Assembly: GCA_964430885.1 (NCBI GenBank)
Contig: CAYSHM010000006.1
Location: forward strand, 86,645 to 150,644
Origin: an uncultured archaeon
GTDB lineage: Archaea; Thermoplasmatota; Penumbrarchaeia; JASLWR01
Length of the DNA: 64,000 nt
Reading direction: 5' to 3'
Shown here: piece after piece, positions 3 to 13,192 of the stretch
How the letters are laid out: each line of letters begins with the position of its first letter
Numbering within the stretch: the stretch's first letter is position 1
The notes under the pieces: model-generated
What the model was told of the DNA's origin: nothing
The model's database searches: none
Seen by the model: only the letters and a program-made list of their open reading frames with translations
Made by a program: the position numbers and the translations under genes

Positions 3-92
3 GCCAGGGTCGGAGAGCTTGTCTCAGTTCACGTTATTCCCAGGCCCCACGAGGAAGTAGAGGATGTTCTGCCTTCCATTGATAGGGATTAA
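3..92 (+). CDS. BMC hexamer shell protein (PduA/EutM/CcmK family, PF00936), 3' fragment; gene starts upstream of the window
   Basis: Not in the ORF track. Frame starting at base 3 reads ARVGELVSVHVIPRPHEEVEDVLPSIDRD then TAA (90-92). GELVSVHVIPRPH is the conserved C-terminal signature of PduA/EutM-type shell proteins. Confidence 0.88.
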   Translation, partial: ARVGELVSVHVIPRPHEEVEDVLPSIDRD

Positions 93-423
93 AGTAATAC
101 TGCATTAAATTGTTATTTGCAGGGATGGGCTGAAATATTCGCCTGCTCCCTTAGAGAACAGGATTTGCATTTGGAGATTTATCCTCAAAATAATAATGAT
201 ATTCTTTTAGGAAGATCATCTGAATGTTTTATCCTGCAATTTACTCAATAGGATTAAATCGAATTGATATCTATGGTGATCATGAAAGCAAAGGCCATAT
301 GTCAATTACTTCCAGATTGAAATGCGGGTAGTATTGTTACCTTTGATATCAAGATCCGGGATATGGAATGTATGGCCTAAACACCACGAAAAAATTCAAG
401 AATAGTGATAATGAAGTGATACA

Positions 424-1863
424 ATGGAAAGGGAGGAAGCGATCAAAAGGATAACCGAAGAGGTTCTTGCAAGAATTAGGGGCGCATCTTCGGGTAATTC
501 TTTGAATACCTCACAGGGATCTGCCGCGGATCAATCCGAAAAGGGACGGAGTGCACCTTATTTAGCCTCTGGGGGAAAATCCATTATTATGATACTCAGC
601 GGAGACCGGACTATTGAGGATCTGAGAGAGGACATCAGTTCCATATGCAGTAGCCAGAAGGTTGAAATGATAGTGGTATCCGATTGGGCTCTTAGGTCCT
701 TCAACATCTTTAAACTCAAGGGTTTAGCTCCTGGGATAAAACTGCTCCAGGAGGGGGACATATTGGGCAGCAAGACAATATCAGACATCTTATCAGACGT
801 TGACTCGGTCTATGTTCTCGACCTGGATATTCCCAGTGCTTCGCGTATTGCAGATTTTGCTCCAGTGCTGCCTGCTGAAAGGGTTATCACAGGGGCAATT
901 ATTTCCGGTAAAAGCGTTATCTGTTCACATGCACTTCTGAGCCCAATGGCAGGGGAGCTAACTCCTCCATGCGCCCGTGAGGCCATTTCCGCAGTTGAGA
1001 AGAAGCTCGTGGCCGTCGGTGTTGCCATGCTTGGTTCGGGGACTTCTTTCAGTGATAATGAAGCAGTGGAACAGGCCCTAGCCCGCTGCCCGGCGGGTGA
1101 AGGAGAATGTATTGGATGCGGATTGTGCGTGAACCTGAACACAGCAGGCGTGGAGAACATCTTTTCAGCCGGAGCCCAGAGGATTAGTACGGCTACCGGA
1201 TTGGATACCCCCAATCCAGATATGGCTCGTATGATAGATCACACGCTGCTGAAACCCGCTGCCACAGAGGATGATATCCGGGAGCTATGTGATGAGGCTA
1301 GAAGATACAATTTCGCTACGGTATGTGTTAATCCATCCCATGTAGCCCTTGCAGCAAGGGAGCTGAGAGGAACGGATGTTGGTATCACCACTGTCATCGG
1401 TTTCCCCCTGGGAGCAACAACCCATACCGCAAAGTCCATTGAGACCCGGGATGCAATAGCCAATGGCGCCAATGAGATAGATATGGTGGTTAACGTTGGC
1501 GCTCTGAAGGCTGGCAACGATGATCTGGTAAAAAGGGATATTGCGTCAGTGGTGAACGCTGCAGGCAATGATGCTATTGTCAAGGTGATTCTTGAGACCT
1601 CTCTGCTGAATGACGAGGAGAAGGTCAGGGGCTGCCTGCTCTCAAAGATGGCCGGGGCGGATTATGTGAAGACATCCACTGGTTTTGGTCCTGGCGGCGC
1701 TACCGTAGAGGATATCCGCTTAATGAGGCAGACTGTGGGCCCAGATATGGGGGTTAAGGCCTCTGGAGGGATCAGAAATACAGACGATGCCAATGCCATG
1801 CTTGAAGCAGGTGCTTCAAGGATAGGTGCTAGTGCTTCAGTTGCCATTGTTAAGGGCGCATGA
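424..1863 (+). CDS. deoC: Deoxyribose-phosphate aldolase with N-terminal encapsulation-peptide-like helix, flavoprotein-like domain and Cys cluster
   Basis: C-terminal ~215 aa carry DERA motifs [34 protein letters not shown] (Schiff-base Lys), KASGGIR and GASRIGAS. The ~265-aa extension begins [20 protein letters not shown] and contains [14 protein letters not shown]. Confidence 0.9.
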
Positions 1864-1976: not shown

Positions 1977-3836
1977 ATGAATGAAAAAGACCTCCAAAGG
2001 GACGATGGTCCCGCTACAGGGAATACCATGGAAAATGAAGAGGAGTTTTCATACACTTCCGGTGAAATAACCGGCAAATCTCCCATGGAGCAAACTCTGG
2101 ATCAAGGTCTTCAATTTCTCGAATACCTCCAAAAGCGGAAGGAAACATACAGGGCGGTCAAACTATATTTTCATAATGACATGGACGGTTTTGCTTCCTC
2201 ACTTCTTGTGAACCATCTCCTGACAAAGATCGGTTATGAAATTCCTCTGGAGAACATACACCCCTTGGCTCATGTCAACCTGAATAATGTGGCAATAGAT
2301 GAACAGCATCTATTTTTCTTTGTAGATATACGGCCCCCTAGCTCAGCTTTCAAAGAATCAAGTCTGGCGGGAGAGGATAGACCTTTCATGGAAAATGTTT
2401 TCTGTGTGGATCATCACACAACCCTGGATTCACCCCTTTCACCCCATGCGAATTTCTTTCTTTACAACTATGAGATCGATGATATTCTTCCATCCACTGC
2501 CACCTTCCTGATGTATTATCTTGTAATGCTTGAGAAAGGGATCAGGGGAACCTACGGTGCCCTCATGAGGGAATGGATGACGAACCCCCCCATGAACACA
2601 AGATATCTTCTGCTACAGGCCACCATTGCTGATCATCTTCATCTTCTGTCGGAAAAGCTACCCAATAATCCCCTGAGGTATCTATCCAACCTGCTTATTG
2701 AGGATATGGATGCCTATGTGCTCCTATCAATAACCACCTCACTGCTGCTGGGAGGGGACGGCGGACATATGGATATGTTCAGGCAACTATATTCCGAAGC
2801 CCTGGGGAATATCAATCAGGAATTAATGGCCCAGAAATTAGAGAACAATCTTTCTCAGGTACTTTCGCTTTTTGAATTCGTGGATATTCTCATGAAGAAG
2901 CGTAAGGAATTCATCGATGATATGGCCAAGGATATGGATGGGGAGATCCAGAGAACAGAAGCTGGGATCAGCGGAATGACGGATACCCTGAATAACTATA
3001 ACACCGCAGCCGATAAGATCAAGGAGGAACTCTCATTCCAGAATATAGCTATGGGGAAACTGAAGGATCTTCGAAATGATTACATGGGTATCAGGGAGCA
3101 GATGACGCGTTTAGAGAACCAGATAGGTATTGAGTTGGGAAGGCTTGAAAAACAGAAAGTTCTCAGATACCATCTTGTGGCTGAAGGAGACATCAATTTA
3201 TCAGTTTTCCTGCCACCCCAGAACAATGATCAGGTTAGAGGCATACTGTCATCACTTCTATTTTATCACGGTAATAACAACATCATCATAGAGGAGAAGA
3301 CATCCAAGGCCGTGTGGAGTTCAAGGGGTTATGAGGGAAAGGAATTGGAAAGCTTCCTGACAACAGTATCGGTGGACATGGAGAAATTGATGGAACTGAA
3401 GGAACATCAGGAGGCGGTGGAGGAATTTAAGGGAGATCCAACCATAATTGAGAAGCTTGAATTGGATGAGAGGTCCCCTCCTTTGATATCTGTGGAGAAC
3501 CGATATATCGGACAGATGGGTGGCAGGAGTAGGATATTCGGCGGTATCATTACCAGCAATGTCACCCTTGATGCTAGCACTTTGGTTCAAGACAGAGGAG
3601 GTAATGAACTACAGTCCATACTTACGGTTCCTCACCAGCGGTTCTGGATATCAACTATACAAGCAATAAAGGAAAAATTCAAGGAGAGCCAGTGGTTCAC
3701 AGTACAGGTGGAAGGGGGTGCAAGCTTGGGCGAGATACTCTCAGACCAGTGGGAGCTGCTGCTGATGCATTTCATGGGCAATAGGATGTCATACAGGATT
3801 TTTGAACTGAAAAGCAATGGTCAAGATGGCATCTGA
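1977..3836 (+). CDS. DHH-family phosphoesterase-like protein with coiled-coil insertion
   Basis: DHH motifs FHNDMDG, FVD, VDHH and TIAD; heptad-rich central ~90 aa; degenerate DHHA1-like GG..GG (MGGRSRIFGG). Confidence 0.6.
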   Translation: MNEKDLQRDDGPATGNTMENEEEFSYTSGEITGKSPMEQTLDQGLQFLEYLQKRKETYRAVKLYFHNDMDGFASSLLVNHLLTKIGYEIPLENIHPLAHVNLNNVAIDEQHLFFFVDIRPPSSAFKESSLAGEDRPFMENVFCVDHHTTLDSPLSPHANFFLYNYEIDDILPSTATFLMYYLVMLEKGIRGTYGALMREWMTNPPMNTRYLLLQATIADHLHLLSEKLPNNPLRYLSNLLIEDMDAYVLLSITTSLLLGGDGGHMDMFRQLYSEALGNINQELMAQKLENNLSQVLSLFEFVDILMKKRKEFIDDMAKDMDGEIQRTEAGISGMTDTLNNYNTAADKIKEELSFQNIAMGKLKDLRNDYMGIREQMTRLENQIGIELGRLEKQKVLRYHLVAEGDINLSVFLPPQNNDQVRGILSSLLFYHGNNNIIIEEKTSKAVWSSRGYEGKELESFLTTVSVDMEKLMELKEHQEAVEEFKGDPTIIEKLELDERSPPLISVENRYIGQMGGRSRIFGGIITSNVTLDASTLVQDRGGNELQSILTVPHQRFWISTIQAIKEKFKESQWFTVQVEGGASLGEILSDQWELLLMHFMGNRMSYRIFELKSNGQDGI

Positions 3837-6167: not shown

Positions 6168-6446
6168 ATGAAGTTGCCAAGAAGGATAAAAACGTACTGT
6201 CCGTTCTGCAAGGTCCACACGGAGCATAAGGTGGAAAATGTGAAGAAGAAGAAGGCTTCTGAGCTGAAATGGGGACAGAGACGTTTCAGAAAGGTAATGA
6301 GAGGGTACAGGGGATTTCCCAGACCCAAACCCGAAGGCAGGGAAAAACCAACCAAAAGAATATATCTACGAAAAAGGTGCACCCAGTGCAATAAAGCTCA
6401 TCAGAGCAAATGTTTCAGATCAGGGAAATTTGCGTTCAAGGATTGA
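6168..6446 (+). CDS. rpl44e: 50S ribosomal protein L44e
   Basis: [42 protein letters not shown] and RCTQC zinc ribbon; archaeal operon context. Confidence 0.97.
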
Positions 6447-6451
6447 TAATT

Positions 6452-6667
6452 ATGCATATACAAAAACAGACCAAGTATTTGGATACACCTAACAGCAAAT
6501 ACTTAAAGGTGAAATGTCACGACTGCATGAACGAGCAGGTAATATTCAACAAGGCCAGTAATGTTGTGAAATGTTTGGTTTGCGGGGCTACTTTAGCAGA
6601 ACCCACCGGCGGAATGGCCAAGGTAAAGAGTAAGATATTGGCCGTTGTTGACAGAAAGTACAGATGA
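6452..6667 (+). CDS. rps27e: 30S ribosomal protein S27e
   Basis: [20 protein letters not shown]...[19 protein letters not shown] at 6452 is preferred over the track start 6410, which overlaps rpl44e. Confidence 0.96.
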
Positions 6668-6681
6668 AGGTAGAGATTTAT

Positions 6682-7455
6682 ATGGCAAACCGATTCGAAT
6701 GGCCTTTGGAAGATGAACTGGTTGTATGTACCGTAAAAAGGGTTCTTGATTATGGTGCTTTTGTTACCCTGGATGAATATCAGGATAAAGAAGGCTTCAT
6801 CCATATTGCTGAGATCGCTTCCGGTTGGGTCAAATATATCGGCAACCATATTAGAGAAAAGGCCAAGGTTGTTACCAAGGTCCTTCGTGTGGATCCTCGA
6901 AGGGAGCATATAGATCTCTCCTTGAAGAGGGTCAATGACCACCAGAAGAGGGCAAAGATACAGGAGTGGAGAAGAAATACCAAGATGCTGAAGCTCTTCG
7001 AACTTCTCTCAAAAAGAATAGAGAAAGAGCTGAAATTGTGTTATAGAGAGTTTGGTTTCTCACTGATGGAGAAATACGGCTCCCTTTATAACTCCTTTGA
7101 AGCGGTATCTATCAATAACAATGTCCTTGAAGAGGACGGTTTCCAGGGAGACTGGGTGGAGCATTTTGTTGATATTGCACGGACCAATATAACTCCCCCC
7201 TATGTATCCATTTCAGAGAAAATATACCTATTCTCTCCTGCTCCCAATGGAGTGGAACATGTTAAGGAAGCTATAGGTTCGGTGATCAAAAATTCCGAGG
7301 AAAACGTCAAGATCACCTATGTAGGGGCGCCGGAATACCGGATCTCCGTCATCGCCCGCGATTATAAAAATGCGGAATCAGTAATGGCTAATACTGCAGG
7401 AGATGTTATTGATAAGATAACATCAACGGGCGGTTATGGTTCATTCGATAGATAA
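6682..7455 (+). CDS. eif2a: Translation initiation factor 2 subunit alpha (aIF2alpha)
   Basis: S1 domain WPLEDELVVCTV..YGAFVTLDEY..EGFIHIAEIASGWVKYI, HIDLSLKRV and YVGAPEYRI. Alternative start at 6664. Confidence 0.96.
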   Translation: MANRFEWPLEDELVVCTVKRVLDYGAFVTLDEYQDKEGFIHIAEIASGWVKYIGNHIREKAKVVTKVLRVDPRREHIDLSLKRVNDHQKRAKIQEWRRNTKMLKLFELLSKRIEKELKLCYREFGFSLMEKYGSLYNSFEAVSINNNVLEEDGFQGDWVEHFVDIARTNITPPYVSISEKIYLFSPAPNGVEHVKEAIGSVIKNSEENVKITYVGAPEYRISVIARDYKNAESVMANTAGDVIDKITSTGGYGSFDR

Positions 7456-7481
7456 ATAATTTTTTCAAGAGGGCATGGATC

Positions 7482-7661
7482 ATGAAGCATTTTTTATTCA
7501 AGTGTTCAGAATGTTCAGTCTATACTATGGACCAACAATGCCCAGAATGCGGTAATACAGCTTGGGCTGTGGAACCCCCTCGTTTTTCACCACAGGACCG
7601 TTGGGGGAAATACCGCAGAAAGTTATTACTTAACTTGGAGAATGATGAGAATGATGGATAG
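7482..7661 (+). CDS. nop10: H/ACA RNP protein Nop10
   Basis: 59-aa ORF below the track cut-off: MKHFLFKCSECSVYTMDQQCPECGNTAWAVEPPRFSPQDRWGKYRRKLL. It sits in the canonical position between aIF2alpha and PAC2. Confidence 0.93.
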   Translation: MKHFLFKCSECSVYTMDQQCPECGNTAWAVEPPRFSPQDRWGKYRRKLLLNLENDENDG

Positions 7662-8418
7662 TGTGATCTTCCAAAAGGAAAATGTTCCCGATTGCCAGAA
7701 TGCGGTATTGATAGAGGGATTACCGGGAATAGGACGGGTAGGTCAGATAGCAGCAGATTATTTGGTGGAAAAATTGAATTCGGAAAAATTTATCACAATT
7801 TATTCACCCTTCTTTCCTCCTCAGGTTATGGTTGATGATGAGGGTCTGGTTCATCCCATGATTCAGGAAATGCATCACTGCATCACTAAATCAGGACGTC
7901 ATTTACTGTTCTTAACCGGAGACTATCAGGGTTTGACTGGCGAAGCCCAGTATGCTCTCAGTCATGAAGTATTGAAACTCGCAAGCTCCATGGATGTGAA
8001 AGAGATCATAACTCTAGGTGGTTACGGTGTTAGAAAGATACTTGAAGAACCCAGGGTACTCGGTGCTGCCACTTCAAATGAAATTGTCTCCAAAATGGAG
8101 GAATTTCAGGTTGTGTTCAAAAGCGAACACCCCACGGGCGGTATTGTAGGAGCATCCGGTATATTGCTTGGATTGGCTCCGCTGTTTGATCTTGAAGGGG
8201 TTTGCCTAATGGGTGAGACCCATGGTGCCTATCCAGATCATATTGCTGCAAAGATGATATTGAAGGTGCTGGATGCATATCTGGATCTGGATCTTGTTTA
8301 TGATGATCTGGATGAACCCTCTCCCGCCCTGGAGGCCCTGAAGGCCCAGATAAAGGAAATGGATCAGGAAGCAGAAAAAGGTTACAAGGAAGAACAAGAA
8401 CTGAACTATTTTGTATGA
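7642..8418 (+). CDS. Proteasome assembly chaperone PAC2 family protein
   Basis: LIEGLPGIGRVGQIAADYL, GDYQ, IITLGGY, GGIVGASGILLG, CLMGET and D..AAK; conserved operon position after nop10. The start may be 7651 or 7654. Confidence 0.9.
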   Translation: MMRMMDSVIFQKENVPDCQNAVLIEGLPGIGRVGQIAADYLVEKLNSEKFITIYSPFFPPQVMVDDEGLVHPMIQEMHHCITKSGRHLLFLTGDYQGLTGEAQYALSHEVLKLASSMDVKEIITLGGYGVRKILEEPRVLGAATSNEIVSKMEEFQVVFKSEHPTGGIVGASGILLGLAPLFDLEGVCLMGETHGAYPDHIAAKMILKVLDAYLDLDLVYDDLDEPSPALEALKAQIKEMDQEAEKGYKEEQELNYFV

Positions 8419-8584: not shown

Positions 8585-11500
8585 ATGGGAGTTCATCATA
8601 TGGCCGCAACTTTTTCAGGTAAGAAAGGTATCTATTCAGTTATTTTAATAATTATTATTATTTTATGTGGTTACTCAGGTTTTATCCCATTGGTGTTGAG
8701 GAATGAAGACCAATTTATATGTTCCTTATTGCCGTCCGATCCAAATTCTGAGGACAATGATGAGATTATAGATGGCAATATTGATAATGATATAATTACA
8801 AGAGGGAAAGGTTGGTTCTACCAAATGATCGACTTTCGGGACGAATCGGGTTTGGGGCAATCACCTTCTGCCAGATTTGACTCCATAGGGAATCTTCATG
8901 TAGGGTACGAGGATAGAGAAGCGGACCGCTTGAAATATACTTACTGGAACGGAAACCAATGGGATATCCAAGTAATTGCCGGTTCAGATCCGGGGGATCC
9001 CATTGATACGGAAGGGCGTCCTTATATGGTGCTTGATGATATTGATAGTCCCCATTTTGCCTATATTGATGATGATGAACACCTCAAGCACACTTACTGG
9101 GACAACGACCATTGGGCCCATGAAATTGTGGATGGCATTTCCCAGTGCAAGGGTTATACTCCTCTGGTAATAGATGGGAACGGCAGTATTCATGTGACGT
9201 ATTATGATTCTATTATTACTGCCTTGAAGTATGCCTATTTCGATGGTAATTTCTGGAATGCCACCGTTGTGGATTCATTCGGAGACGTGGGTGAGTATTG
9301 TTCAATAGCCGTGGATTCGGAGAACAATCCCCATATTAGCTATTTTAATGATTCGGCGGACGATCTTAAATATGCAACCTTTAACGGAATGTCCTGGAGC
9401 AACCAAACAGTTGATTCCACGGGTTTTGTAGGCCAATACACATCTATAGCAATCGGGACTGATCAGCACCCTAGGATCAGTTACAGAGACGTGACCAACC
9501 GATTTCTGAAATTTGCGTTCTTCTTCAACGGGAACTGGACCATCGAATCCGCAGATTCAACACCCCAGGATGTTGGAAAGGACTGCAGTCTTTTTCTGGA
9601 TTCATCGGATAATCCTCATATTTCATATTTTGATGATTCCTGGAATGACCTGAGGTATGTTCATCATGACGGTGAGCAGTGGAACATGGGGATAATAGAT
9701 TCCGATTCAACAGCTGGAGACTACACCTGTATTGCTCTAAATGGGACTGACAGTCCTCACATTTTTTATCATAGGGAAAATGACGGCGAGCATACCTTGG
9801 AATATGCAAATCTGATAGAGGAGTACAGCAACCCTTTCCTAATTTCAGATGAGACTGCCGAGTATGGTACTACAGGTGAAAAGCTCCAGTTCAATATAAG
9901 CGCGGGCGATAATTTTGCAGTTAAGAATGTTAAGGTGAATTGGGAACACAACGGAACCAGCGAGAACCTTTCCCTTGTTGAGGGTAATTCATTTTGGATT
10001 GGAGAGGCCGAAATAGAGCACGATTTGGCTACTCTAAACTATACTATCTACATAGAGGATTACTGTCAGAACCATTACAATAGCCATCAGTTCAGAGTAA
10101 ATATCAGTGATGATGACCTTCCGGTGATTATTGGTGATTCAAGTCCGAATTTCGGAACTACTGGTGATATTTTTAGATTTAATATAACTGCCTATGATAA
10201 TATTGGACTGGATACTATAAAAGTCAACTGGACCCATGGGAATCTGGCTGGAAATACTACATTGACCGAATCCATAGATGGCTATTGGAATTCCAGTATA
10301 ATACTTGATCATAACCTTAGCGATATGAACTATACTATCTTCATAAATGATACATCAAACAACAGCATAACAGTGCCGGGGGTACCAGTGAATATTTCAG
10401 ATGATGATCTTCCGGTTCTCATAGAAGACATGTCCCCTCTATCAGGAACAACAGGTGATGATTTCCTTATACAATTGTCACTGGATGATAATATAGGTGT
10501 TGAAGGTGCATTCGTGAACTGGAGTCACGGCGGTTTAGATGATAATATCTCCTTGGTGCTGCAAAGGGGTCGATGGACCAGGACAATACAGCTGGACCAT
10601 AACCTTTCTGATTTGCAGTACTATGTATTCTTCAATGATACCTCTGGTAACAGCAATGCAACCCCGGTTCTCAATATAGAAGTTCACGACAATGACCTTC
10701 CCTATCTGGATGACATAAGCCCTGACAATGGCACCACAGGGGATCCGTTCGAGTTCAGAATCACTACTGGAGACAATATAGATGTCGGAAGTGTTAATAT
10801 ATCCTGGGAACATGGGAATCTGAGCGGTAATGCTCCTCTTGCTGAGGAAGGCCCCAACCTTTGGATGGGCACCATCTTTCTCGACCATTCCATTGAACAT
10901 CTATCCTATTATGTGCAGGTAAATGATACCGCAGGCAACAGTGTCAATCATCAGGGGCCAATGGTCCATGTAATGGATAACGATGATCCTTTTATTCAGA
11001 ATGATAATTCCAGCGGCACAGGATCCACCGGTGATAATTACACGTTTTTGATACAGCCTTTGGATGATGTTTGGGTCAGCAGTGTGCTTGTCGACTGGAA
11101 TCACGGTGAGGCCGATGGCAGGCTAGAACTGATCAAGAACAATACTGGATTCTGGGAGGGCATTGTTTCTCTAGTTGATGATATTGGTGATCTGGAATAT
11201 ACAGTACAGATAAACGATAGTTCGGGAAATTATCACATTAGTTCCAAGCGTTTCATTATGATATTGGATAATGATATTCCTATGATTAGGGAGAACAACT
11301 GTCCGAATTTCGGGACCACTGGCGATGAATATATTTTCAGTATGGAACCATGGGATAATATCGAGGTTGATAGTGTCAATGTGAGTTTTAATCATGGTCC
11401 GATGGATGAAAACATTGAGCTAGAAAAAGGACTTGGTGATTCCTGGTCTGCTAAGATTTACATGGCTCATTCTCTATCGAATCTCGAATATTCCTTTCAG

Positions 11501-13192
11501 GTAAATGATACTTCAGGTAATTTTTATCGAAATGAATTGACAAATGTCCAAGTATTCGATAACGATGACCCCCAATTCATATCCAATCTTACCCTTGGGA
11601 CCTCAACAACCGGGGGAAATATCATATTCAAAATCAATGCCAAGGACAATATTGGGATACAGAGCGTGAAAGTGCAGTACAGTTATGGTGAGCCCTGGGC
11701 CGAATTCACCTACTTGATTCCATATGTAGGCAATTTCACCTATGAAAAGACCATTGTGACATATGATACCATTGATCCCCTGTTTTACCGATTCATTATT
11801 GAAGATAGCAATGGTAACTCTTTCACCACTGATTATTCACCCATACTGATATCGGATAATGACGATCCGGTTATTATACATGATGATACCCCCCGGCGGG
11901 TATCTCTGCTGGAATTCCTGAATTTCCAAGTCAATACGGTAGATAATGTGGGGCTGGACAATGTCAAGGTGTATTTTGGATACGGAGTAAATGTAAACCT
12001 TACAATTCTGGAACTGACTTCAAACGAGCAGATGGAAGAAAATTATACCGGTATTCTAGTCCTGGACATCAATGCAACAGCTGATCTTCTATATTTTATC
12101 CGGGCAGTTGATACAAGCGGCAACCAAGCAACTACAAAAATGAAAATGATCAATATATCTGAACTCCATGAGGATTTTGACGGCGATGGAATAATAGATT
12201 TTAGGGATGAAGATGATGACAACGATACCATCCCGGATGACTGGGAGATCAATTTCGGTCTTAACCCTTACAACCGATCTGACAGTTCAAATGACATGGA
12301 AGGAGACGGACTTATGAACCTCTATGAATACCAGAATGGTTTGAATCCGACCTCCAACGATACAGATAATGACGGAATGCCTGACGGTTGGGAGGTCATA
12401 AACAATTTGGATCCCTTGAAGAACGATGCGAATCTCGATCCAGATCGGGATAATCTGCCGAATACTGACGAATACCGAATTGGAAGTGATCCCCGAAATC
12501 ATGATTCAGACGGTGATTACTGGACAGATGGTGATGAGGTTACAAGAGGCTCTGATCCCCTTGATATCAATTCTTTCCCTTCGGATCCGGGAGATGATGG
12601 AATACTCTTTAATCTGTTTGGAATTGGTATAGATATAAAGGATATATTGGGTATTACCGCGTCCCTGCTTTCCTTCCTTCTAGCATATCTACTGTTAACC
12701 AGAAGAAGACGAAAGTATCAGCATTATGTTTTGAAAATTGCCGAGATCAATGATCTTGATAAGCTGGTTGAATATTATCGGGTGGAAATATTAACTGCCA
12801 TCAAGAATGAGCAGATCACACCTCATCATGCAGTAATAATCAAAGAGGATTATACCAAACGCAGGGAAGAATTACAGGATATGGATAATTCCGGGGACGG
12901 ATCGAGAGAGGAAATCGCACATTCTTCAATTTCAAAAGAAGATGATGAACAGGATTCCGAAAGTGATGAAGCAGGTTTTTCAGCCCCAGTCCTTGACGAA
13001 GATCAACACCCGGAACAGAATGACCATGATGTCGATGAAATTCTAACCGATTCAGAAAAATCAGCCGATGATTTTGAGACCAGTCCTGATGATGATGAAG
13101 ATGATGTTGATTTTGAGATCGATACTTCCTTTGATGAAGACGACAATGTAATAACTCCGGCTGATCTTTTTGAGGATAACTTCGATATGTAG
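8585..13192 (+). CDS. Large membrane-anchored surface protein: 7-blade beta-propeller, 8 Ig-like repeats, DxDxDG Ca-binding repeats, TM, acidic tail
   Basis: N-terminal hydrophobic segment; seven repeats of W...VD..G.VG.Y.SIA.D...PHISY...LKYA; eight ~97-aa GTTGD..DNIG repeats; D.DGDG.PD.WE motifs; TM followed by RRRRK. Confidence 0.75.
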   Translation: MGVHHMAATFSGKKGIYSVILIIIIILCGYSGFIPLVLRNEDQFICSLLPSDPNSEDNDEIIDGNIDNDIITRGKGWFYQMIDFRDESGLGQSPSARFDSIGNLHVGYEDREADRLKYTYWNGNQWDIQVIAGSDPGDPIDTEGRPYMVLDDIDSPHFAYIDDDEHLKHTYWDNDHWAHEIVDGISQCKGYTPLVIDGNGSIHVTYYDSIITALKYAYFDGNFWNATVVDSFGDVGEYCSIAVDSENNPHISYFNDSADDLKYATFNGMSWSNQTVDSTGFVGQYTSIAIGTDQHPRISYRDVTNRFLKFAFFFNGNWTIESADSTPQDVGKDCSLFLDSSDNPHISYFDDSWNDLRYVHHDGEQWNMGIIDSDSTAGDYTCIALNGTDSPHIFYHRENDGEHTLEYANLIEEYSNPFLISDETAEYGTTGEKLQFNISAGDNFAVKNVKVNWEHNGTSENLSLVEGNSFWIGEAEIEHDLATLNYTIYIEDYCQNHYNSHQFRVNISDDDLPVIIGDSSPNFGTTGDIFRFNITAYDNIGLDTIKVNWTHGNLAGNTTLTESIDGYWNSSIILDHNLSDMNYTIFINDTSNNSITVPGVPVNISDDDLPVLIEDMSPLSGTTGDDFLIQLSLDDNIGVEGAFVNWSHGGLDDNISLVLQRGRWTRTIQLDHNLSDLQYYVFFNDTSGNSNATPVLNIEVHDNDLPYLDDISPDNGTTGDPFEFRITTGDNIDVGSVNISWEHGNLSGNAPLAEEGPNLWMGTIFLDHSIEHLSYYVQVNDTAGNSVNHQGPMVHVMDNDDPFIQNDNSSGTGSTGDNYTFLIQPLDDVWVSSVLVDWNHGEADGRLELIKNNTGFWEGIVSLVDDIGDLEYTVQINDSSGNYHISSKRFIMILDNDIPMIRENNCPNFGTTGDEYIFSMEPWDNIEVDSVNVSFNHGPMDENIELEKGLGDSWSAKIYMAHSLSNLEYSFQVNDTSGNFYRNELTNVQVFDNDDPQFISNLTLGTSTTGGNIIFKINAKDNIGIQSVKVQYSYGEPWAEFTYLIPYVGNFTYEKTIVTYDTIDPLFYRFIIEDSNGNSFTTDYSPILISDNDDPVIIHDDTPRRVSLLEFLNFQVNTVDNVGLDNVKVYFGYGVNVNLTILELTSNEQMEENYTGILVLDINATADLLYFIRAVDTSGNQATTKMKMINISELHEDFDGDGIIDFRDEDDDNDTIPDDWEINFGLNPYNRSDSSNDMEGDGLMNLYEYQNGLNPTSNDTDNDGMPDGWEVINNLDPLKNDANLDPDRDNLPNTDEYRIGSDPRNHDSDGDYWTDGDEVTRGSDPLDINSFPSDPGDDGILFNLFGIGIDIKDILGITASLLSFLLAYLLLTRRRRKYQHYVLKIAEINDLDKLVEYYRVEILTAIKNEQITPHHAVIIKEDYTKRREELQDMDNSGDGSREEIAHSSISKEDDEQDSESDEAGFSAPVLDEDQHPEQNDHDVDEILTDSEKSADDFETSPDDDEDDVDFEIDTSFDEDDNVITPADLFEDNFDM

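Follow-up and report, generated by a model that had tools for sequence, protein, structure and literature searches.

A probable encapsulation peptide at the N-terminus of the flavoprotein-like/DERA aldolase of an archaeal SPU-type microcompartment locus

Is the aldolase encoded next to a bacterial microcompartment (BMC) shell gene in an uncultured archaeon marked as cargo of that shell by its own N-terminus? The question is raised by the first 1,863 nucleotides (nt) of a 64,000-nt stretch from a Thermoplasmatota genome (Penumbrarchaeia, JASLWR01; assembly GCA_964430885.1, contig CAYSHM010000006.1), hereafter the window (G000:C6:86645-150644), in which the end of a BMC-H gene is followed by an open reading frame (ORF) for a DERA/DeoC aldolase. 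A preliminary description of the window had read the first residues of this ORF as an encapsulation peptide (EP) and the enzyme as lumenal cargo. Our analysis indicates that residues 1-20 are very probably a BMC encapsulation peptide. Encapsulation peptides on SPU and archaeal Flav+DERA aldolases are already published, and the present aldolase is a further case; since the feature has been described for this DERA family, the reading holds up without being novel.

The ORF lies on the + strand and encodes 479 amino acids (aa), its start at 424 being the first start codon past an in-frame stop. Its features are as follows.

424..1863, + strand: whole predicted cargo gene (479 aa), comprising the probable encapsulation peptide, linker, flavoprotein-like domain, four-cysteine motif and DERA
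424..483, + strand: EP-like amphipathic helix, residues 1-20 (AlphaFold2 helix 3-19, column entropy, profile match)
484..576, + strand: flexible S/A/G-rich linker, residues 21-51 (pLDDT <50 at 22-46, variable length)
577..1083, + strand: HFCD-type flavoprotein-like domain (Rossmann-like), residues 52 to ~220 (domain model, fold searches)
1087..1128, + strand: invariant four-cysteine motif C222-x6-C229-x2-C232-x2-C235 (alignment), a putative metal or Fe-S site
1201..1863, + strand: DERA/DeoC TIM barrel, residues 260-479 plus stop codon (PF01791, PDB profile, Foldseek)

Pfam recognizes the aldolase family (PF01791, DeoC/LacD aldolase) only at residues 270-469 (E 6.3e-14), and by this boundary ~210 residues lie between the linker and the aldolase core. 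The AlphaFold2 model, built on an alignment of 50 full-length homologues (43-60% identity), contains a helix at residues 3-19 (pLDDT ~72), a stretch with pLDDT <50 at 22-46, a confident domain from ~52 to 205, a low-confidence segment at 224-262 and a confident barrel up to the C-terminus. The helix is hydrophobic at A6, I7, I10, V14, L15, A16 and I18, forming an I..I...VL..I pattern. Both the amphipathic helix at residues 1-20 and the ~30-aa flexible polar linker, which had been read from the letters alone, are thus borne out by the model, the former together with a conserved hydrophobic face. The linker residues 21-52 (nt 484-579) include 8 S, 5 A, 5 G, 2 N and 2 Q among 32, with 59% being S/G/N/Q/T/P; position 570, where the preliminary description ended the element, falls inside the linker.

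The conservation of the N-terminus follows the helix face. Among the 50 aligned sequences, column entropy is low at helix positions 6, 7, 10, 14, 15 and 18, with V14 kept in 49/50, and high at positions 8, 12, 16 and 19, which vary freely. The linkers of the 50 homologues are 14-36 aa long (median 23), S/A/P/G-rich and above 3 bits in column entropy. A helix profile of 19 positions, for which 49 homologues but not the window's own protein were used, ranks the aldolase N-terminus first among 5402 ORF N-termini of the genome (E 1e-4; runner-up E 0.11). Scoring against encapsulation-peptide profiles had been proposed as a check on the reading; the profile used here is one of the DERA family. Furthermore, the helix pattern combined with a polar, hydrophobic-poor linker occurs in 2 of the 2105 genome ORFs of at least 150 aa, and the second one is a lipoprotein-like signal sequence.

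The same N-terminus is widespread among related proteins. The protein search returned many homologues of ~460-500 aa spanning the full query at 42-62% identity, and the helix is found at the N-terminus with at least 8 bits in 55 of the 70 further homologues listed outside the profile; the misses among these 70 are mostly 5'-truncated gene calls beginning inside the next domain. In short homologues of ~290-310 aa the flavoprotein domain is missing while helix, linker, Cys motif and DERA are present, so the helix belongs to the aldolase lineage and not to the flavoprotein-like domain. The classical encapsulation peptides of PduP, PduD and EutC (Fan et al. 2010; Aussignargues et al. 2015) reportedly consist of a terminal amphipathic helix of ~18 residues with the pattern h..hh..hh..h and a poorly conserved linker. 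The present N-terminus resembles these classical examples in its terminal amphipathic helix on a poorly conserved linker and differs from them in enzyme, locus type and domain of life; a detectable homology in sequence is neither expected nor claimed.

The extension was then compared with the occurrence of shell genes in a census with one genome per species, which covered at least 80 DeoC loci and whose counts refer to the loci listed. Extensions were called long on either of two grounds: 20 or more residues counted from the first ATG, or 50 or more in-frame residues together with a profile match of at least 5 bits. The simple helix pattern, applied to the in-frame upstream peptides, misclassified loci (L067 as a false positive and five as false negatives), so the census rests on the extension-length/profile rule. 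Shell genes were searched for in the flanks by tblastn with H, T, P1 and P3 of the locus (E <=1e-5) and genome-wide by PF00936. A long N-terminal extension is present on 49 DeoC genes among the 80 listed loci. Shell genes are in the fetched flank for 25 of these 49, and PF00936 is matched elsewhere in the genome for 23 of the remaining 24. The occurrence of the extension in genomes lacking shell genes had been named as the observation that would speak against cargo; 48 of the 49 listed extension-bearing genes lie in genomes with shell genes, and the reading is not refuted by this comparison. The other 31 of the 80 loci are without the extension, having <=17 residues before the core; the flank holds no shell gene in 30 of them, and the single extension-less locus with a flank shell gene is cut at the contig end, with its N-terminus unseen. 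In control genomes with plain DeoC, PF00936 was matched in 2 of the 10 tested. Fisher's test of 23/24 against 2/10 gives p = 2e-5, a value that overstates independence because many of the genomes are related.

Closer relatives show the same association. The full-length fusion was found in three of the 40 relatives searched (two of three same-family genomes and one same-class genome), and a BMC gene lies directly upstream of the fusion on the same contig in 3/3 of these fusion-bearing archaeal relatives. In relative G027, the order RpiB, BMC-P, BMC-H, aldolase and DHH protein is as here, and the helix is nearly identical. Relative G033, which carries a plain DeoC, gave no PF00936/BMC-domain match in its genome. 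A further relative, G028, has no such aldolase and retains only a BMC-domain protein of ~225 aa.

The shell gene at the beginning of the window had been described as a fragment. It is indeed a shell gene, but not an isolated fragment: the complete BMC-H gene (97 aa, L008:18444-18737 in locus coordinates) starts 201 nt before the window, and a full SPU locus lies upstream, with the following genes.

Window 3..92, + strand: end of BMC-H, last 29 codons plus stop (PF00936 E 9.4e-27; own-genome match G000:C6:86464-86691)
Upstream stretch of ~8 kb, same strand: 209-aa BMC-domain protein, BMC-T-like (ORF listing, Pfam)
L008:11202-11993, same strand: 263-aa protein with no Pfam family, beginning with an amphipathic h..hh..hh..h stretch
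Upstream stretch, same strand: first BMC-P (Pfam)
L008:12354-13784, same strand: aldehyde dehydrogenase (AldDH), 476 aa, beginning with an h..hh..hh..h helix
Upstream stretch, same strand: 453-aa RnfC/Nuo51-type Fe-S flavoprotein, an RnfC/PduS-like NADH dehydrogenase (Pfam)
Upstream stretch, same strand: tandem-domain BMC-T, T(s) (Pfam)
L008:15836-16351, same strand: second BMC-P, with a Lys-rich C-terminal tail of ~75 residues
L008:16358-17272, same strand: triosephosphate isomerase (TPI), with a 55-residue extension before the TIM domain and an h..hh..hh..h start
L008:17263-17748, same strand: RpiB (PF02502)
Upstream stretch, same strand: third BMC-P (Pfam)

All SPU-type genes (DERA PF01791, RpiB PF02502, AldDH PF00171, BMC-H and BMC-P) lie within 9 kb on one strand. 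The upstream genes and the aldolase form a complete SPU metabolosome locus according to the definition given by Sutter et al. (PMC8217296), and the aldolase gene is its last gene. The N-termini of AldDH, TPI and the 263-aa protein are likely to be further encapsulation peptides, judging from their helix patterns. RpiB residues 7-152 match 2vvr_A residues 1-146, so residue 72, an Asp, falls on the position of E. coli RpiB Cys66 (an ungapped alignment being assumed); all SPU RpiB proteins are reported to carry Asp for the catalytic Cys (PMC11585597, Commun Biol 2024). The RpiB of the locus has no N-terminal extension, unlike the SPU6 RpiB described in that paper. The Lys-rich tail of the second BMC-P resembles the DNA-binding disordered tail described for archaeal P2 proteins by Du et al. 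(bioRxiv 2025, PMC12747264).

These two reports also describe the closest known counterparts of the aldolase. According to PMC11585597, an N-terminal extension with an EP-typical amphipathic helix is common to all SPU-associated DERAs and absent from non-BMC DERAs. The SPU DERA described there and the present aldolase share an amphipathic N-terminal helix of moderate AF2 confidence on the signature aldolase, a locus with RpiB and AldDH, and an Asp-type RpiB. In contrast, the extension of SPU6 (Chloroflexi) is described as ~70 residues long, with a helix of ~25-30 aa and two low-confidence strands placed directly on DERA, whereas the present aldolase has a helix of 17-20 aa, a linker of ~30 aa, a flavoprotein-like domain of ~170 aa and the C-x6-C-x2-C-x2-C motif, in an archaeal host. 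The earlier placement of an encapsulation peptide on the aldolase needs one correction: its sequence marks are present, but what its tether joins it to is the flavoprotein-like domain with the four-cysteine motif, and the aldolase follows only after these.

Archaeal SPU-type microcompartments are reported by Du et al. for Hodarchaeales and, more sparsely, for Thermoplasmatota (JASLWR01) and SpSt-1190. In these microcompartments DERA is described as fused to a flavoprotein domain, and encapsulation peptides are predicted on Flav+DERA. For a Hodarchaeales representative, GFP-tagged enzymes are reported to be recruited to shells and EP-deletion variants not. The Flav+DERA of the preprint agrees with the present protein as a two-domain protein of ~470-497 aa (OG0000006, Flavoprotein + DERA), and its operon agrees with the present locus in being SPU-type, with MNdh, a T(s) with the CPGK motif, three P proteins and a Lys-rich tail on P2. 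The present locus departs from the Hodarchaeales model in its single BMC-H, an additional BMC-T-like gene, the presence of TPI and the absence of PTAC; it fits the JASLWR01 operons of the preprint, which are said there to lack PTAC and to have an additional T gene but one H gene less. The encapsulation peptides of the JASLWR01 lineage are not analysed in the main text of PMC12747264. Sutter et al. (PMC8217296) had already noted, in genomes with HO-type compartments, a pfam01791 gene that carries an encapsulation peptide and is placed distally.

The sequence-level marks of an encapsulation peptide are supported, namely a terminal helix, a variable linker, absence from non-compartment DeoC and co-occurrence with shell genes (PF00936, PF03319). 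What was computed directly is the helix and the linker with their conservation pattern, the order of the domains, the complete locus and the association with shell genes across genomes; from these we infer the physical binding and encapsulation of the aldolase and the chemistry inside the shell. The earlier proposal that the DeoC is lumenal cargo gains support from the conservation, the locus and the census, and its encapsulation is predicted on this ground. The finding supports the archaeal locus as a working organelle with addressed cargo rather than a decayed import, and the picture tested in Hodarchaeales by the 2025 preprint is thereby extended to a second lineage of archaea. For encapsulation experiments, a defined tag of 20 residues is now available along with the shell genes that match it.

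Several observations weigh against the encapsulation peptide. The Eisenberg hydrophobic moment of residues 2-19 is 0.40, and the best 14-mer reaches 0.59. The value of 0.40 falls inside the EP range of 0.3-0.5 quoted in the Methods of PMC12747264; it is not significant alone, as 2725 of 10000 shuffles (27%) reach it, and the best 14-mer moment is only within the top 7.8% of the 2105 genome ORFs. Since the moment does not stand out against shuffles, amphipathicity alone was not used as evidence, and the support for the helix comes from conservation and context. Moreover, the helix profile misses the other putative cargo of the locus, with AldDH ranking 10th (E 7.8) and TPI and the 263-aa protein outside the top 25. 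A profile of the DERA family that finds only DERA is family-specific, and the signal shared across the locus is seen by eye only. In the census, the exception among the extension-bearing genes, L031 (genome G068), lies on a contig of only 2.9 kb from a metagenome-assembled genome that may be incomplete and that gave no PF00936 match. In addition, the published EP-deletion experiments concern the Hodarchaeales homologue and not the present aldolase.

With these points taken into account, the encapsulation peptide would act as follows. The short amphipathic helix would sit on a disordered tether of ~30 residues. During assembly, its face (I7, I10, V14, L15 and I18) would most likely dock on the lumenal side of shell tiles and/or on other cargo helices. 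This docking would bring the enzyme, with its flavoprotein-like and DERA parts, into the SPU microcompartment whose genes lie directly upstream, where the co-encapsulated AldDH would oxidise acetaldehyde to acetyl-CoA.

The alternative that survives best is that the helix mainly drives aggregation among cargo proteins, nucleating an enzyme core by helix-helix association around which the shell closes. PMC11585597 states that encapsulation peptides aggregate the core proteins besides binding the grooves between adjacent shell tiles, and the full-length SPU6 DERA of Chloroflexi is reported there to be insoluble until the extension is removed. In the present locus, AldDH and TPI carry similar N-terminal helices, and the attached HFCD-type domain resembles proteins titled dodecameric in the PDB. 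However, both activities are reported for encapsulation peptides, and aggregation is therefore compatible with an address to the shell. Furthermore, PMC12747264 reports that tagged enzymes are recruited to preformed shell particles and that this recruitment is lost on EP deletion, which points to direct shell contact in the homologue. We consider aggregation unlikely as the main role of the helix.

A role unrelated to encapsulation, whether in the structure or regulation of the flavoprotein domain or as a membrane-binding amphipathic helix, draws on the frequency of the simple helix pattern (332 of the 2105 genome ORFs) and on the unremarkable hydrophobic moment. It is very improbable, because a low-confidence, length-variable tether separates the helix from the domain, the helix persists in homologues without the flavoprotein domain, and it is absent from DeoC without the long extension while all but one of the listed carriers are in genomes with shell genes. 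Finally, an annotation artefact, with translation starting downstream (e.g. at M56) and the upstream codons not made into protein, can be practically set aside: start codons of BMC cargo are often mis-called according to PMC11585597, but the error described there is the opposite one, of extensions being missed, and the 20 codons encode residues that are conserved in 50 homologues, match the profile at E 1e-4 and begin at the first start codon past the in-frame stop.

The encapsulation peptide is separated from the aldolase barrel by a domain and a motif of their own. Modelled alone, the middle domain reaches a pLDDT of 91.8, with VIA-align Z-scores of 16.0 to 12.8 for eleven HFCD-type chains (EpiD, MrsD, PPC decarboxylase and UbiX) and <=9.3 for others, and Foldseek E-values of 2e-6 to 2e-4 against HFCD-type chains. 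As modelled, it has the HFCD flavoprotein fold. The Pfam family PF02441 is not matched by the window's own protein at E <=0.1 and is matched by 11 of the 50 homologues (best E 1.5e-5), so the domain is named flavoprotein-like here. A search of the whole-protein profile against the PDB gave for this domain an insignificant match to EpiD only (E 0.5). Several of the matched HFCD-type PDB entries carry dodecamer titles, and the fusion might therefore multimerise. A candidate relation in which the middle domain is shared with the 263-aa protein of the locus was dropped (BLASTP best E 4.4).

The four-cysteine motif is invariant in 50/50 aligned sequences, and the pattern C-x(4-9)-C-x2-C-x2-C is found in 118 of 120 listed homologues, 34-37 aa ahead of the IDHT motif. 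The motif gives weak Fer4-type Pfam matches and has pLDDT <50; it is a possible metal or Fe-S site. A Cys or metal motif on DERA is mentioned in neither of the main texts of PMC11585597 and PMC12747264, the word 'cysteine' occurring 0 times in that of the preprint. The invariant Cys motif and the flavoprotein-like domain on the signature enzyme deserve attention, and either may bear on electron handling or core assembly. More speculatively, the helix, the HFCD-type domain and the four-Cys site could form a redox-active, multimerising scaffold that nucleates the cargo core and feeds or senses electrons for MNdh and export through T(s). We regard this as doubtful; a scaffold or redox role is not discussed in the main texts of the same two reports.

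The barrel itself matches DERA, the class I deoxyribose-phosphate aldolase, in sequence and fold, with a PDB profile E of 1.5e-124 and Foldseek matches to solved DERAs at TM 0.97, rmsd 0.9 Å and 63-66% identity. The listed solved DERA chains begin at profile positions 258-275, and none covers the first 258 positions. D353, K416 and K445 are invariant in 50/50 sequences, with a spacing of 63 and 29 residues against 64 and 29 for the Chloroflexi DERA residues named in PMC11585597. Judging from this spacing, they may be the catalytic residues, which in E. coli are D102, K167 and K201.

A gap of 330 nt (window 93-423) separates BMC-H from the aldolase gene. It contains weak inverted repeats only (14 nt, 86% complementary) and matches no Rfam family. 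Neither the window nor this gap yielded anything noteworthy when scanned for Rfam families, tRNAs and repeats. The corresponding gap in relative G027 is ~95-140 nt, depending on the start chosen. The gap could possibly hold an internal promoter.

On the other side, 4.3 kb downstream, the archaeal gene string L44e, S27e, aIF2-alpha, Nop10 and PAC2 lies on the same strand (window 6168-8418). The presence of these archaeal translation genes on the same contig identifies the host as an archaeon and places the compartment locus in an archaeal chromosomal context. A DHH (RecJ-like) gene follows right after the aldolase (window 1977-3836), the same as in relative G027; its protein has no helix-linker N-terminus and is therefore not marked as cargo by this criterion. 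Elsewhere in the genome, further BMC-domain matches of low score (26-42 bits) occur at G000:C3:172693-172872 and G000:C26:44807-45296, inside open frames of 194-344 aa. Very large, repeat-rich predicted surface proteins flank the locus on both sides, with 1535 aa at window 8585-13192, 1505 aa at L008:2478-6995 and 1023 aa with PKD domains at L008:7171-10242.

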